Assembly: GCA_032249135.1 (NCBI GenBank)
Contig: JAVVGL010000004.1
Coordinates: forward strand, 1 to 64,000
Direction of reading: 5' to 3'
Source: Candidatus Calescibacterium sp.
Lineage (GTDB): Bacteria; Calescibacteriota; Calescibacteriia; Calescibacteriales; Calescibacteriaceae
DNA length: 64,000 nucleotides
Made by a program: the position numbers and the translations under genes. This document shows, one piece after another, positions 40,078-64,000 of the stretch (its first letter is position 1; the number at the start of each line of letters is the position of its first letter). Under the pieces are notes generated by a model. The model was not told the origin of the DNA. It made no database searches and saw nothing but the letters and a program-made list of their open reading frames with translations.

Positions 40078-40098
40078 AAAATGCTTTGTCGCAATCAT
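40078..40098. repeat. Dispersed repeat aaaatgctttgtcgcaatcat
   Basis: Exact 21-bp reverse complement of 62502-62522; related copies at 60801-60813 and 21047-21061. Confidence 0.85.
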
Positions 40099-59502: not shown

Positions 59503-60801
59503 ATGGTGGTTTTTGCCTTTTTGTTTTTTGCTATAAATCTTACATTAGATGAGGCAGTAAAAATAGCTGTTGAAAATAATCTTTCAGTCTCTTCTCAAAG
59601 ATACTCTCTCAAAGATGTTGAATATACTGCAAAAGCTGCCTGGTCTTATGTGCTTCCAAGATTAGTTGTTGATTCGTCTTACAGAAGAAACCTTGAACTA
59701 CCGGAAGCTCAAATAGGTATGCAAAAAGTAAAAGTAGGAAAGCCAGATCAAACCCAAATTACTCTGTCTTTGGTTCAATCTCTACCTATTGATGGTTCTG
59801 TTTGGTACCTCAAAGAAGCTCAAAAGTATTCTTACGATTCTCAATCATACTCGTTTTTGGCTTTCAAGAACGAAATAATTTTCAGAGTTGTAAATCTTTA
59901 CATTACAATTTCTAAACTTTTGCTCTCTCAAAATATAGCAAAGGAAAATTTAGAGAGGATGAAAAAGCATTATGAGGTCGCTCAAAACCTTTTTTCTGCT
60001 GGACTTATTCCCGAAGTTGATCTCACAAGAATAGAAACATCTTTGTATGAAGCTCAACTTCAACTTAAAAATATAGAAATTCAGCTCCACCAGAACCTGC
60101 AAAATTTTCTTCTGATTTTGGGCAAAGATGATATAGATCCTATTCCTTCTCAATCTATTGATGAACTCATTTTTATTTTTGATCCTTTCGGATTTTTTGA
60201 CTCAATAACCCAAGAAAAGATAGATATAGAAAATTCTCCTGATATATCATCTATAAGATTTAGGGTTTTGCAATTGGATAGACTTTCAAAAGCTCAAAGA
60301 GGACAACTCTTCCCGCAAATATCTTTTGGTTTTTCTCTCATAAACTCTTTCGGTTCTTTTATTGAACAAAGGAATATACCCGTTTTATCTGTTGGAGCAA
60401 ATTTGACTTTTGATTTTGGTGGAACTTACCACAACTACCTTGCAGTAAAGCAAAGAAAAATATCAGTTGAGTTTCAACTTGAAGATTTGAAAAGACAAAA
60501 AATCAAAAGCTTGGAAATGGTTATTAAAGAATATGAACTTGTAAAAAGCAGACTTGAACTCGCTCAAAGCAGACTTGCATCAGCTGAAAAATCCTTGAAA
60601 TCAGCAGAGGAACTTTTCAGATATGGAAAACTAACTTCTGTTGACCTTATGGATTATGAGTTCCAATACGAAAACGCAAAATTTGACATCATATCAGCAA
60701 AAGCTGATTTATTACTCCTTATGTGGAGAACTATTTACTTGACAGGACAGCTAGAGCAGTTTTTCATATCAAAAAATCATGTTGGCAAAAAGTCTAACTA
60801 G
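59503..60801 (+). CDS. TolC family outer-membrane efflux protein
   Basis: LTLDEAVKIAVENN, LPRL, FSAGLI..DL, LFPQIS, FRYGKLTSVDL. Confidence 0.85.
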   Translation: MVVFAFLFFAINLTLDEAVKIAVENNLSVSSQRYSLKDVEYTAKAAWSYVLPRLVVDSSYRRNLELPEAQIGMQKVKVGKPDQTQITLSLVQSLPIDGSVWYLKEAQKYSYDSQSYSFLAFKNEIIFRVVNLYITISKLLLSQNIAKENLERMKKHYEVAQNLFSAGLIPEVDLTRIETSLYEAQLQLKNIEIQLHQNLQNFLLILGKDDIDPIPSQSIDELIFIFDPFGFFDSITQEKIDIENSPDISSIRFRVLQLDRLSKAQRGQLFPQISFGFSLINSFGSFIEQRNIPVLSVGANLTFDFGGTYHNYLAVKQRKISVEFQLEDLKRQKIKSLEMVIKEYELVKSRLELAQSRLASAEKSLKSAEELFRYGKLTSVDLMDYEFQYENAKFDIISAKADLLLLMWRTIYLTGQLEQFFISKNHVGKKSN

Positions 60802-60814
60802 CTTTGCCGCAATG

Positions 60815-61060
60815 AGAACGACCCCATTTTCAGGGCGGCCCTGCAAAGCCATCAGGACCTAACCTCATCGCTACCCCCTCCCACTTCCCTTGCACCATCA
60901 CAGGGCGCAAGGGAGAGAAGTCCCTCATACAGAACCTCCCAAGGAGAGGTATAGCGAAGGCTACCCTCAGAACTCGCCAGAATTTCTGTCCGCTTTCCGG
61001 ACCCCTCACAGGTTCCTTCCTCAGGTTCCCCTGCTTTTGGGTCTCTGGCTCACTCTGAGA
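60815..61060 (-). ncRNA. Candidate omegaRNA/reRNA overlapping the 3' end of tnpB
   Basis: Abrupt GC-rich segment with nested hairpins (tcccttgcgcc/ggtgcaaggga; gtccg-gaaag-cggac; ggtcctg/cagggcc); TnpB RNAs usually overlap the gene end. Confidence 0.45.
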
Positions 61061-62413
61061 GCTTTTATTTGTTTCCATCAAAAATTTTTCCAAAAATTTC
61101 TCCAAAAATTTCTTCTCCTTCTTCAACCTCCTCAAATCCCTCTTTATTCCATTTGCTTTGTATTTGTTTTTTTCTTGATTCAACTTATTTCTCAATTCCT
61201 CCTCCATTTTCCCTAATCTCCATAATGCATATTGAATGTAAATCTGGCTTTTGAGAAGCTTTTTGTAGTTCTCTGGTATTTCTTCCTGAAAACCTAACGC
61301 TTTCCTACCTATAACATATGCTCCTGCTATATCTTTATCTATAAAATACTGCGGACAATATTTCATCATACCTATAACTGATGTGAAAGCTGGATTTACC
61401 TTCACTACCTCTATTCCTTCCTGAATTGCTAAGCTCTCTATCTTTTTCAGTATTCTCCTATAAGAGAAAAATTGTAGGATTTTTCTGAGCTTTGCTTTAC
61501 CATCCCCTCTCTTTCCTTTTGGGAGCTTTCCAATATCCTCAATTGCTATTGCTTTATTTTTTTCTTTTGCAAATTTTATAACCTCGTGAGCTATCAACCA
61601 CTCCTCATATTCTTTCCTATTTCTGCTTTTGTATTTCAAAAGATAAGAAAGATAGATTGATTTGTAGCTTTGCAAATTACCATCAGGAGAAACTTCTGCA
61701 AGAGCAAGATGGAAAGGTCTTGCATTCACATCTATTCCTATTACTCCCTTTGATTTCGTAATTGTTTGAGGGGGAACATCAAGAGAAAATCTGACAAATC
61801 CGTATATTTGACCATCTTTGAGTTTTAGCTCAACAGTGTAAGGGAATTGCTCTCCCGATAAGATTTTTGCCAAAAACAAAGCCCACTTATCTGATTTCCC
61901 ACTCAAATCTCTCTTTACCCTTGCTAATATAAATTTCCTGTTCTTCAAAGCTATTCTTAACAGAAGATTGTTTTTACCATTTTCAGCAGGGATAAATCTG
62001 AGATTAAGGTTTCCTTTGTGAGTTTTGTGCTTTGCGCCTATGCTTAACAAAGTTCCCTGCCTTTTTTCTTTCCATTTTCTCTTAAGCTCCTTCAATCTTT
62101 TTCCTTGAAGATAATTCTTTTTGAGCTTTTCAAATAGAGTTCTACCACCGAATATAAGCTTTTTTGGATTCTGTCCTCTTGCTTTGCAACTTTGAAAAAT
62201 CTCTCTTGCTTTCTCAACTGCACAATTTACATAATGAGAGTTGAGTTCTGGGAATTTCTGTCTTGTTATTGTGTAAGCTTGCAAAGTGGTAAAACCCTCA
62301 AGAAGTCTCTTGTATGAAAATCTTACAGCAGAAGAGAAACTTCTCATAAGTTTCAGGATTTGTTCTTTCTCTTCCCTATTTACAACGAGTTTGAAACTTG
62401 TAGTTATGAACAT
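60830..62413 (-). CDS. tnpB: IS200/IS605 accessory TnpB-related RuvC nuclease (527 aa, no zinc finger)
   Basis: MRSFSSAVRFSYKRL, LIFGGR, GNLNLR; RuvC-I GIDVN, RuvC-II AIEDI, VNPAFTS, RuvC-III DKDIAGAYVIGRK. Confidence 0.88.
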   Translation of the reverse strand: MFITTSFKLVVNREEKEQILKLMRSFSSAVRFSYKRLLEGFTTLQAYTITRQKFPELNSHYVNCAVEKAREIFQSCKARGQNPKKLIFGGRTLFEKLKKNYLQGKRLKELKRKWKEKRQGTLLSIGAKHKTHKGNLNLRFIPAENGKNNLLLRIALKNRKFILARVKRDLSGKSDKWALFLAKILSGEQFPYTVELKLKDGQIYGFVRFSLDVPPQTITKSKGVIGIDVNARPFHLALAEVSPDGNLQSYKSIYLSYLLKYKSRNRKEYEEWLIAHEVIKFAKEKNKAIAIEDIGKLPKGKRGDGKAKLRKILQFFSYRRILKKIESLAIQEGIEVVKVNPAFTSVIGMMKYCPQYFIDKDIAGAYVIGRKALGFQEEIPENYKKLLKSQIYIQYALWRLGKMEEELRNKLNQEKNKYKANGIKRDLRRLKKEKKFLEKFLEKFLMETNKSSQSEPETQKQGNLRKEPVRGPESGQKFWRVLRVAFAIPLLGRFCMRDFSPLRPVMVQGKWEGVAMRLGPDGFAGPP

Positions 62414-62501
62414 ATAAATTAAACAAATTGTAATAATTGATTTTGGCTTAAAGCGGAATTTTGTAAAATTTTTGAATTTAGGGAAGAAATTATAATTTCA
62501 G

Positions 62502-62522
62502 ATGATTGCGACAAAGCATTTT
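62502..62522. repeat. Dispersed repeat atgattgcgacaaagcatttt
   Basis: Exact reverse complement of 40078-40098. Confidence 0.85.
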
Positions 62523-62567
62523 TAAATCATAAAATGTGTAAAATCCCTTTTTATGATTGGAGTTTTG

Positions 62568-64000
62568 ATGATAAATAGAGTTCATTTTGTTTTACTTCCT
62601 TTTCTTATCATTTCTTTCGGTCAGCTTACTTCCTGCTCTTCCTCTGCTCCTTCTAAATTAAGTGAAAATTACAAAGTTGTTCAGAGGTTAAATCTTATAA
62701 GAGTTGGAACTTCAAACATCAAATGGGAGCTTTACCTTGGTACAGGCGGGTACCAAAAATTAGAAGAGAAAGTTTTGAGTTCTTTTGAGTTTTCTCCCTC
62801 TGGTATTGAATCTGGTATTGAAAATCAGTTTGTTTCAGCTAAATTAGAGAAAAAAGACGATTTCGCTGTTATTTATGTGAGATCAAAGCTTTACGACTTT
62901 GATTTCAAGCAGGATATTTTACCTTTTATAGAACTTGAATTTCTATGTGGTGATAAAGAAAGATTTTTCGGTTTCGGCTCGTGGGCAGATTATGCCGACG
63001 CAACAGGAAGGAAAAGACTGATATACACACAAGAACAGCATGTTGGAGGAGAAATGACAGATGATGGAAAAATAGTAAATCAGCCATGGCCTTTTGGTGA
63101 ATTACTAACTTATTTTCCTGTTCCATTTTTTGTTTCTTCTCAAAACTATGCATTTTTTGTCACAGGATTTGACCCTATCGTTTTTTCCATATGTGAAGAT
63201 GGGAAAGTATGGAAAGTCAAGGTTTTCAATAATTCCGCCACATTTTTTGTTTTTGGCTGGAAAGAAAAACCCCTTGAAGCAATTAAAAAATTTACCGGAA
63301 TTGTAGGCAGACAAAAAACTCCACCAATATGGGCTTTTGGAAACTGGATAGATGCGATAGGAGGTCAGAAAAAAGTAGAAAATACAGCTCTTTTTTTGAG
63401 AGAAAATAAAATTCCTTCTTCTGCTATATGGACGGAAGATTGGGCAGGTGGTTTCAGGAGAACAGAAGATATATACACAATAGAAGGTTGGGATACAGAA
63501 CCATCTTATGAGCTTTATCCAGATATAAAATCTTTATCATCAAAACTTCACTCATTAGGATTTAGATTTTTGGGGTATTTCCACCATTTTGTCGGAAAAA
63601 ATAAAAAAGCCTTTTCATACTTTCAGGAAAACGAACTTTTGCTAAAAGCAAAAGATGGAAAAACAAGATTTGTTTTCTTTATACCAGAAGCTCAAGATGT
63701 TGGTTTGCTTGACCTTGAAAACCCAAAAACTTGGGAAGCTATGAAATCTATAATGAAAAGTGTGGCAAGTTTGGGCTTTTCCGGATGGATGGCTGACTTT
63801 GGAGAATGGGTAACTCCTGATATGATTTCATTTTCAGGTAAAACAGGTTGGCAACTTCATAACCTTTATCCGTATCTTTGGGCAAAACTCAACAGAGAAT
63901 TTTGGGAAGAGTTTTCTCAATCTGATTTTGTCTTCTTTTCAAGGTCTGGATTTACTGGTTCTTGGGTGTTTTCTCCTGTTGTTTGGCAAGGAGATCAGAA
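62568..64000 (+). CDS. Glycoside hydrolase family 31 lipoprotein (YihQ-like), 3'-truncated by window edge; absent from ORF track
   Basis: Manual translation: lipobox LTSC, TYFPVPFFVSS, PPIWAFG, WTEDWAG, GWMADFGEW (nucleophile), HNLYPYLW, FFSRSG, WQGDQ. Confidence 0.88.
   Translation, partial: MINRVHFVLLPFLIISFGQLTSCSSSAPSKLSENYKVVQRLNLIRVGTSNIKWELYLGTGGYQKLEEKVLSSFEFSPSGIESGIENQFVSAKLEKKDDFAVIYVRSKLYDFDFKQDILPFIELEFLCGDKERFFGFGSWADYADATGRKRLIYTQEQHVGGEMTDDGKIVNQPWPFGELLTYFPVPFFVSSQNYAFFVTGFDPIVFSICEDGKVWKVKVFNNSATFFVFGWKEKPLEAIKKFTGIVGRQKTPPIWAFGNWIDAIGGQKKVENTALFLRENKIPSSAIWTEDWAGGFRRTEDIYTIEGWDTEPSYELYPDIKSLSSKLHSLGFRFLGYFHHFVGKNKKAFSYFQENELLLKAKDGKTRFVFFIPEAQDVGLLDLENPKTWEAMKSIMKSVASLGFSGWMADFGEWVTPDMISFSGKTGWQLHNLYPYLWAKLNREFWEEFSQSDFVFFSRSGFTGSWVFSPVVWQGDQ

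Follow-up and report, generated by a model that had tools for sequence, protein, structure and literature searches.

We conclude, with a probability of roughly 0.8, that the interval 60800-62518 (minus strand, ~1.72 kb) of the window, a 64,000-nt stretch of Candidatus Calescibacterium sp. (contig JAVVGL010000004.1 of assembly GCA_032249135.1, positions 1 to 64,000), is a non-autonomous insertion sequence (IS) that has the ends and integration pattern of an IS5-family DDE transposon, namely terminal inverted repeats (TIRs) of 13-16 bp and a 9-bp target duplication, and that carries as cargo a tnpB-omegaRNA module of an IS607-type, zinc-finger-less lineage. In the mechanism that we propose, the DDE transposase of a sister IS with the same TIR would move the element in trans and would insert its left end ~10 nt downstream of a TTAT motif. 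tnpB would then be expressed from the left end, while the omegaRNA would arise from the last ~260 nt, with the right-end repeat as the final strand of its pseudoknot, and would run on into the flank, picking up a guide. TnpB would cut empty alleles and not the occupied one, favouring retention or homing of the element; only the empty allele would be cleavable because the flank (the duplicated 9 nt and the sequence downstream) is preceded by TTAT-N only when unoccupied. The initial annotation of this DNA had offered capture of TnpB as cargo of a non-autonomous TIR element as one of two possibilities, and this is now supported by the demonstration of true ends, by 9-bp duplications, by a DDE partner and by an independent replicate in Hydrogenobacter.

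The extent of the element was set by homology with the other genomic copies and by the junctions of empty alleles, and in the tnpB orientation it reads 5'-T-GCTTTGTCGCAAT ... ATTGCGGCAAAGC-T-3'. Its 13-nt repeats, gctttgccgcaat at 60801-60813 (right end of the minus-strand element) and attgcgacaaagc at 62505-62517 (its left end, upstream of tnpB), are complementary at 12/13 positions, and the first base is the G of the TAG stop codon of tolC, so that the inverted repeats reported in the initial annotation to bracket the gene from the last base of that codon are indeed present. The left-end TIR lies ~95 nt 5' of the tnpB start codon, and an RNA pseudoknot described below takes its 3' strand from the last 6 nt of the right-end TIR (60801-60806). 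When the genomic copies and empty tolC-GH31 alleles were aligned, as had been suggested, the TIRs were the ends at 5/5 left-end junctions, which start with (W)TGCYTTGYCRCAATCATCT, and at 5/6 right-end junctions, which end with TTGCGRCAAARC, the sixth being a degenerate fragment on contig C1. The left-end TIR is likewise kept at the junctions of metagenome loci, where conservation holds at both ends. Because they recur at every copy examined, the 13-nt repeats are the true, conserved ends of the element. Between the TIRs there are no ends of IS605 or IS607 type, and the empty sites place the junctions at the outer TIR edge, not inside the repeats.

This genome (G000; 51 contigs, 87.5% complete, with repeats poorly assembled) holds ten matches to the element, mostly cut by contig ends, with at least four left and at least four right ends among them. 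One is a 165-bp derivative resembling a miniature inverted-repeat transposable element (MITE; C37:4133-4310), a deletion product that has both TIRs and keeps the left-end promoter region and, of the RNA, only the last hairpin; another (C1:203965-204029) is a more degenerate fragment in which the right-end terminus is interrupted. A metagenome scan returned 80 loci with 78-95% identity to the element, and its metagenome relatives form more than 100 clusters at 90% identity. Both ends were located in 52 cases, loci running off the contig or having a non-matching end pattern being excluded, which gave 47 unique flank pairs. In the register N9-T/GC...GC/T-N9, where the slashes are the outer TIR edges, the 9-bp target duplication is perfect (9/9) in 16 of these 47 pairs and matches at 8/9 positions in 2 more; ~5 further pairs match on a one-base shift and the remainder are mismatched. 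One of the pairs with a duplication connects contigs C21 and C14 of this genome, and that pair is contiguous in locus L109. Some mismatched pairs have one flank in common with another locus (e.g. L085, L136), which we attribute to recombination between copies or to chimeric assembly. The earlier remark that no target duplication is evident is thus true of the window copy, though other copies carry 9-bp duplications.

Two side observations concern stray termini. In the window itself, a solo left-end terminus lies in an AT-rich intergenic stretch at 40083-40098 (plus strand), its 13-nt TIR exact and the next 3 nt matching, with neither tnpB nor a DDE gene within the 400 nt read. Three metagenome loci (L059, L069 and L074) have an additional left-end-type TIR copy 145 nt outside the element, which may be the remnant of an earlier insertion.

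The missing duplication of the window copy can be followed at the empty alleles, in which tolC ends with ...AAC TCA TAA. In genome G001 tolC (95% identical protein) is directly followed by GH31, and runs X3 and X4 each yielded one contig (1121 and 1290 nt) joining 60799 to 62518 with CATA between. In the tnpB orientation the empty allele is CATTTTATG-ATTTAAAAA-T-TTATG-AGTTAGACT-T and the occupied allele is CATTTTATG-ATTTAAAAA-T{element}T-AGTTAGACT; therefore the left junction corresponds to insertion at the first TTATG and the right junction to insertion at the second TTATG, 14 nt further. Recombination between two tandem insertions would leave exactly the junctions of the window copy, an adjacent deletion being the alternative, and either would account for the absence of a duplication. 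In the empty allele TTATG precedes what is now the flank, AGTTAGACTTTTTGCC... Through the insertion tolC lost its native TCA TAA end; the new stop codon TAG (60799..60801, plus strand) spans the junction, consisting of one flank base and two element bases, and TolC is shorter by its one last residue.

The presence of empty alleles in the same communities also bears on whether this is a domesticated or immobile TnpB with a host function such as regulation, for which the repeats would be relics. Most TnpB clusters are described as immobile by Altae-Tran et al. (2023, PNAS, PMC10691335). Against such a role here, the element is polymorphic, is multi-copy in the genome, belongs to the large set of metagenome clusters given above and has an intact catalytic triad, and a fixed orthologous position was not seen, a good match being found in 1/3 other genomes of the genus, where it lies elsewhere. 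Domestication is therefore extremely unlikely.

A candidate source for the transposase that would move the non-autonomous element is found in the same genome, where a search for a DDE transposase with matching TIRs, proposed at the outset, turned up an IS5-family element. This 1049-bp element (C24:2292-3340) is bounded by the same TIR, one of its ends being identical to the first 16 nt of the left end of the tnpB element, and is flanked by a 9-10-bp direct repeat. Its open reading frame (ORF) matches DDE_Tnp_1 (PF01609, E 2e-7); of the NCBIfam models, NF033579 (IS5) scores highest, with 87.7 bits, short of the cutoff of 140. An intact 326-aa relative of the C24 transposase (P0271; 91% identity, 141 member sequences), which is abundant in metagenomes, covers the IS5 profile in full. 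With up to 2 mismatches allowed, the 13-mer TIR occurs 69 times in the genome, compared with 36-52 times in shuffled sequence, and the exact and one-mismatch occurrences are the element ends plus a few others. Mobilisation in trans by the transposase of this TIR-sharing sister element is thus probable from the common termini. The absence of an adjacent TnpA or serine recombinase was borne out and extends further, as neither Y1_Tnp (PF01797) nor Resolvase (PF00239) has a match in the 87.5%-complete genome. What was found is accordingly neither an IS200/IS605 element, there being no match to a Y1 TnpA in the genome, nor an IS607 element, there being no match to a serine-recombinase TnpA, and in both cases TIRs and duplications (9 bp) are present; a TIR held in common with a transposase-encoding element and a duplication of fixed length are the features of a non-autonomous IS5-family member. 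In G001 a search for its own TIR (up to 3 mismatches) gave 16 forward and 16 reverse occurrences against 12 and 19 for the control, with no partner element recognisable and no match to DDE_Tnp_1.

The pairing of TIR and DDE gene recurs in a second lineage. Scanning the genome collection with an alignment of 7 full-length homologues (A2) located the TnpB family in hot-spring organisms and other thermophiles, among them Thermocrinis, Hydrogenobacter, Caldipriscus, Thermodesulfobacteriaceae, a Calescibacterium contig, Thermus and Caldanaerobacter. Another TIR, (CT)GAGGCTGTTCTAAAAAT, is carried by members at 45-50% identity, together with 10-bp duplications, seen in 8/18 unique elements having both flanks. 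In the Hydrogenobacter genome G041 the TIR GAGGCTGTTCTAAAAAT occurs 71 times, compared with 3 times for a control pattern, and bounds 1.64-kb TnpB elements, an IS5-like DDE gene and 0.3-0.84-kb deletion derivatives of the DDE element. The G041 DDE gene has a 280-aa frame that scores 76 bits against NF033579 and is 34.7% identical to ISAae1, and the C24 and G041 DDE proteins are 25% identical to each other. The TIR thus differs by lineage, yet within each lineage it is common to the TnpB element and the DDE insertion sequence.

Two further observations were made among these relatives. In G041 two TnpB elements (L225, L258, L259; C18:7403-9041 and C3:42480-44125) have reciprocally exchanged flanks, as expected either from recombination between copies or from a mis-join. 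A 50%-identical member (L145, 805-2435) lies on a contig titled as an Aenigmatarchaeota metagenome-assembled genome; it carries a related TIR (TGCTTTGTC...) and a matching pseudoknot loop, which suggests cross-domain transfer or mis-binning.

The ancestry of the protein lies with IS607. Relatives without TIRs, at ~40-48% identity, have a MerR-Resolvase (IS607-type) TnpA immediately upstream, and for the ~40%-identical relatives (Thermus, Caldanaerobacter and others), several of which are IS607-type, a simple inverted-repeat search produced no convincing TIRs (scores 7-11). In a quick IQ-TREE of 37 proteins, comprising 35 near-full-length loci of the 80 together with G000 and G001 (the other 45 loci, fragmentary or redundant, were excluded, and the root is a midpoint only), the 14 TIR-type proteins, which include two different TIR types, group together on a single branch (SH-aLRT 99) that has IS607-type rows from Aquificota around it. 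This topology is compatible with an IS5-type element having captured a TnpB of IS607 lineage only once. A rival explanation is that the window holds an ordinary solo TnpB of IS607 or IS200/IS605 type (IS1341-like), with a serine or Y1 TnpA missing from the assembly and repeats that are incidental. The TnpA found directly upstream in the nearest non-TIR relatives, the incompleteness and poorly assembled repeats of the genome, and an inverted repeat that in the window copy is not beyond chance would all suit that explanation. It does not account for duplications at 16-18 of the 47 unique pairs, which IS605 and IS607 do not make according to a 2026 review (PMC13565253), for a TIR kept at all ends and common with a DDE element, for the lack of any Y1_Tnp or Resolvase match in the genome, or for the repetition of the TIR-DDE pairing in Hydrogenobacter, and we consider it very unlikely.

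Cargo and ends meet in the predicted omegaRNA scaffold (60800..61062, minus strand, ~260 nt), which overlaps the last ~77 codons of tnpB and the right-end TIR and is predicted from GC content, fold z-score, covariation and a codon-position test. The GC content of 60800-61050 is 55-58%, compared with ~33% around it, and the minus-strand fold of the region has z = -6.3. Seventeen hand-picked 275-nt 3' regions were aligned (2 own copies, G001, 7 Aquificota-type, L145 and 6 metagenome copies), and their consensus has 58 pairs, compensatory changes being seen at 18. With the pseudoknot added the structure has 65 pairs, 98.5% paired, 23 with compensatory changes; 0/500 shuffles were as good, and controls with a slid register were 43-58% paired. 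The pseudoknot helix (helix 11) consists of 7 pairs, 5 of them changed on both sides, with 99.1% of cells paired, although the rows represent only two to four independent TIR lineages and cell counts overstate the number of events. It joins the right-end terminus to the loop (60844-60850) of the terminal hairpin GGUCCUG-AUGGCUUUG-CAGGGCC (helix 10; 60837..60859, minus strand). In every TIR family the right-end TIR finishes in 6-8 nt complementary to the loop of the last hairpin (written loop/terminus): GGCUUUG/CAAAGC here, AGAGGUUG/CAACCUCU in G001, GAGGCUG/CAGCCUC in Aquificota and UGCCUUG/CAAGGCA in L145, the complementarity being 6-8 nt within a TIR family and 3-5 nt across unrelated families. 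The pseudoknot is built on the terminal repeat and covaries with it across lineages. Its predicted position agrees with that of the ISDra2 omegaRNA, in which nt -5 to -3, just 5' of the guide, form a pseudoknot (PMC10097598). Scanning 60500-62800 with Rfam identified no relevant family, the only match being a chance miRNA (E 0.51). In four hot-spring RNA libraries, contigs on 60830-61089 have 10-100 times the summed depth of contigs on the ORF body, a weak hint of the omegaRNA, as the depth of contigs does not allow parts of a gene to be ranked and the libraries may contain DNA.

Two ideas about the right end were discarded. The 12 extra nt at the right end of the window copy are not an insertion, as this is a common long variant with a CCCU-GAAA-AGGG hairpin. 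The possibility that TnpB targets its own left-end TIR, the right-end terminus being the complement of the left end, was dropped because the spacer between scaffold and TIR varies from 0 to 17 nt and also because the pseudoknot accounts for the complementarity.

The RNA structure likewise helps to decide whether the element is a nested product, in which an older MITE or IS remnant received a TnpB element and the outer repeats are foreign. Capture of the tnpB-omegaRNA module must once have involved insertion or recombination into a TIR element, and miniature TIR elements do exist (C37 in this genome, many in G041). There is, however, no second set of ends within the TIRs; the left-end TIR stands close to the start codon, and a covarying pseudoknot has the right-end TIR as its last strand; the repeated unit is the whole 1.7 kb; and the 14 TIR-type proteins form one clade with two TIR types, which points to an old integrated unit and not to recent nesting. 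A nested origin is therefore unlikely, and the second possibility in the initial annotation, insertion into a MITE-like repeat, loses ground on the same lack of inner ends and on the construction of the pseudoknot from the TIR.

The cargo protein, encoded by a 527-aa ORF (60830..62413, minus strand), was characterised as a TnpB without a zinc finger by profile matches, alignment, AlphaFold and Foldseek. The catalytic residues D228 (GIDVN), E292 (AIAIEDI) and D361 (IDKDIAGAY) are invariant in the seven homologues of A2, in keeping with the intact RuvC D/E/D triad noted from the sequence alone, and the split RuvC domain with catalytic D, E and D is that of the TnpB/Cas12 superfamily. In the more divergent homologues (A1, 22 aligned) the RuvC-III position is His in distant members, and it is Asp in this protein and its A2 relatives. 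Cysteines occur only at 64, 76, 353 and 495, with no CxxC motif in the protein or in any of the 22 homologues of A1, which agrees with the earlier statement that the zinc finger is absent. TIGR01766 (TnpB-related) scores 49.2 bits against a cutoff of 32 and TIGR01765 is also matched; guided_TnpB (NF040570) reaches 52 bits, below its cutoff of 100, the Cas12f2 models likewise fall below cutoff, and the Pfam Cas12f1-like TNB model matches only over its first 29 positions, below cutoff. A search of PDB profiles matched Cas12f1 and TnpB over the RuvC-II region. Residues 354-443 (window 61085-61354) match Pfam DUF2192 with 30.5 bits (cutoff 21) over the RuvC-III helix and the subsequent coiled-coil; Pfam labels this family 'uncharacterized protein conserved in archaea', and it may derive from zinc-finger-less TnpBs. 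The AlphaFold2 model (built with the 7 homologues) has a mean pLDDT of 78.4 and a pTM of 0.63, being low only at 299-312, 450-474 and 519-527, and its best PDB matches in Foldseek are AsCas12f (E 1e-10, TM by target 0.52), OsCas12f, Cas12k, ISFba1 TnpB, ISDra2 TnpB and Fanzor2; the predicted fold is the WED-REC-RuvC fold of the TnpB/Cas12 superfamily.

Across 62 full-length copies the proportions of variable sites by codon position are 0.21/0.18/0.73 in codons 1-440 and 0.31/0.26/0.34, with no third-position excess, in codons 452-527. The TnpB protein is thus shown to be under purifying selection, and protein-type constraint is confined to codons 1 to ~440 (61094-62413), although the frame is open to at least 515 codons in 46/62 copies. 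Given the absence of a third-position excess and the overlap with structured RNA, the tail is therefore mainly the RNA gene read in frame. The long C-terminus pointed out initially is real as an ORF of 527 aa, but codons 452-527 are not evidently a protein domain. The protein is a putative RNA-guided nuclease.

Outside the left end lies the motif through which TnpB may recognise its target. After TTAT (62529..62532, minus strand) come 1 nt and then the 9 nt (62519-62527, ATTTAAAAA) for which duplication would normally be expected. In a set of 67 unique left flanks, the four positions from -15 to -12 relative to the TIR are T in 59, T in 58, A in 50 and T in 46, and TTAT is exact in 39; no mirror motif is present in 44 unique right flanks, which have only the terminal T of the element. 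In G041 the corresponding motif is GTCA, which adjoins the duplicated 10 nt at 10/17 R-type and 5/18 L-type ends of DDE elements without TnpB, and at 4/9 left and 0/6 right ends of TnpB elements, against a background of 0.0014 per position. As GTCA is found at DDE elements that lack TnpB, the motif is therefore chosen by the DDE machinery, and tnpB faces it. TTAT may serve as the transposon-associated motif (TAM), the short motif that TnpB requires beside its target, by analogy with the TnpA target in IS605. The predicted guide (60780..60799, minus strand) would come from the flank beyond the right end, by read-through of the omegaRNA, and is antisense to the last tolC codons; its placement follows the TnpB biology of Nakagawa 2023 (PMC10097598).

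Taken together, these features lead us to a more speculative proposal, to which we would give somewhat less than even odds: that the IS5-type DDE system and the TnpB-omegaRNA are co-adapted, through a shared motif/TAM and a TIR-based pseudoknot. First, the transposase would integrate at a set spacing from TTAT (here) or GTCA (in Aquificota), for the most part in the same orientation, with TnpB using the same motif as its TAM. Second, the omegaRNA would have rebuilt its guide-proximal pseudoknot on whichever terminal repeat the transposase demands. If true, every new insertion would make a guide matching the TAM-adjacent empty allele despite the intervening duplication; the arrangement would be a prokaryotic counterpart of that of Fanzor1 in DDE transposons; and the nuclease would be a natural thermostable one without a zinc finger, with a TAM readable directly from insertion sites.

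Several observations count against the interpretation of this element as an IS5-type transposon with a TnpB cargo, or against individual steps of the mechanism. Taken alone, the inverted repeat of the window copy is no better than chance, the surrounding 1.9-kb region having 39 inverted pairs of at least 12 nt and the TIR pair lying outside the 25 longest; it is the recurrence at other copies that makes it real. Clean duplications are limited to 16-18 of the 47 pairs and are lacking at the window copy, and some flank mismatches could come from chimeric metagenome assemblies. The C24 copy of the DDE gene, the sole one in the genome, is a pseudogene with at least two in-frame stops in its N-terminal part, and the intact relative P0271 is known from metagenomes without genomic context. 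No element was seen to carry both a DDE gene and tnpB, only the 13-16-bp TIR being common to the two kinds of element, and tblastn with the C24 protein recovered no DDE gene within 2.5 kb of any of the 80 metagenome loci. TTAT, the putative TAM, is frequent in DNA of 33% GC, the weight lying in its fixed position; for the DDE elements of G041 the motif is not confined strictly to one side, and the TnpB ends available there are few. On the RNA side, neither the thinly covered parts of the stretch nor the step in depth of the library contigs can establish transcription, strand or RNA ends, and a sigma-70 promoter scan gave 4 sites with 4.9 expected, which is not above chance. Finally, a hairpin of terminator type, its loop GAAA-like and its 3' side followed by a T-rich tract (60836-60821, minus strand), just inside the right-end TIR and found only in the 'long' right-end variant of the family, could stop transcripts before the flank.

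The view of the initial annotation that TnpB normally accompanies Y1 or serine transposases lacking TIRs is out of date, DDE-TIR TnpBs having been published (PMC10691335). [quoted passage not shown] The 2026 review (PMC13565253) lists the DDE transposases associated with TnpB as of ISL2, IS630 and IS1031 types, calls the association rare and discusses whether it is of any benefit. As in DDE-1 to DDE-6, the TnpB described here lies between the inverted terminal repeats of a DDE transposon, with the 3' end of its gene likewise less than 250 bp from the transposon end, and, as with the solo TnpBs of those branches, its ends are common with a transposase-bearing element, implying mobilisation in trans; unlike DDE-1 to DDE-6, no element was seen here with the DDE gene and tnpB together. 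The category was thus already described in 2023 and our element is another case of it, in unusually clear detail. The main text of PMC10691335 makes no mention of a 9-bp duplication, of the TTAT geometry, of a TIR-based pseudoknot or of IS607 ancestry, and these may be new details. Literature on TnpB with TIR/DDE, on zinc finger/IS1341 and on target-site duplication/IS5 provided nothing more specific, and the supplementary lists of PMC10691335 may include this family.

The element resembles the IS5 family (ISAae1 and ISTth7 types) in its TIRs and 9-10-bp duplication and in a partner element of ~1.05 kb with a DDE_Tnp_1 transposase of ~290-330 aa; it is unlike that family in encoding no transposase, and the partner transposases fall below the NCBIfam IS5 cutoffs (76-95 against 140 bits). 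IS903, for its part, is ~1.06 kb long and makes a 9-bp duplication. The closest protein relatives are IS607-family TnpBs, with which the element also has the same omegaRNA 3' hairpin motif (GGTTAG...) in common; unlike that family it has no TnpA, and it has TIRs and duplications, which IS607 lacks in the account of PMC13565253. The absence of a zinc finger and the His at the RuvC-III position of distant A1 homologues recall the RIIIr-4 clade of TnpB, which lacks the C4 zinc finger and has the RuvC-III Asp replaced by His (PMC10691335), although this protein and its close relatives keep the Asp (D361, which does not vary in A2). The same source documents whole TnpB clades that have lost the zinc finger.

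The ISDra2 TnpB (IS200/IS605) is matched in fold (Foldseek 8exa and 8h1j, E ~1e-5), and as in ISDra2 the omegaRNA overlaps the 3' end of the gene and the pseudoknot uses nucleotides just 5' of the guide (PMC10097598). The tail read here from the RNA gene parallels the C-terminal domain of ISDra2 TnpB, a tail that is disordered and dispensable (PMC10097598). In contrast to our element, ISDra2 has a CxxC...CxxC zinc finger and a Y1 TnpA and lacks both TIRs and a duplication; TTGAT, the target of its TnpA, serves as its TAM and abuts the left end, whereas the motif here is separated from it by nucleotides that become duplicated. An RNA-guided TnpB-type nuclease inside a transposon with TIRs and target-site duplications is also the arrangement of Fanzor1 in DDE transposons (PMC13565253), and there the target duplication or flank is part of the TAM/target logic, which may be likened to the situation here. 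Unlike our element, Fanzor1 is eukaryotic with larger proteins, and the likeness is one of arrangement.

Cas12 descends from TnpB, whose best-understood role, cleavage of the empty donor site, was established with the scarless IS605 and IS607 transposons. To our knowledge, how TnpB serves duplication-making, cut-and-paste DDE transposons has hardly been studied in prokaryotes. The compact, zinc-finger-less proteins of this family come from thermophiles and may interest tool developers. In this family an IS5-type element apparently took up a TnpB of the IS607 lineage a single time and then spread across several thermophile phyla. The family offers a clean natural case for how TnpB serves a DDE transposon, with many copies, with empty and occupied alleles in the same communities, with a readable motif where the TAM should sit and with a pseudoknot that tracks the terminal repeat.

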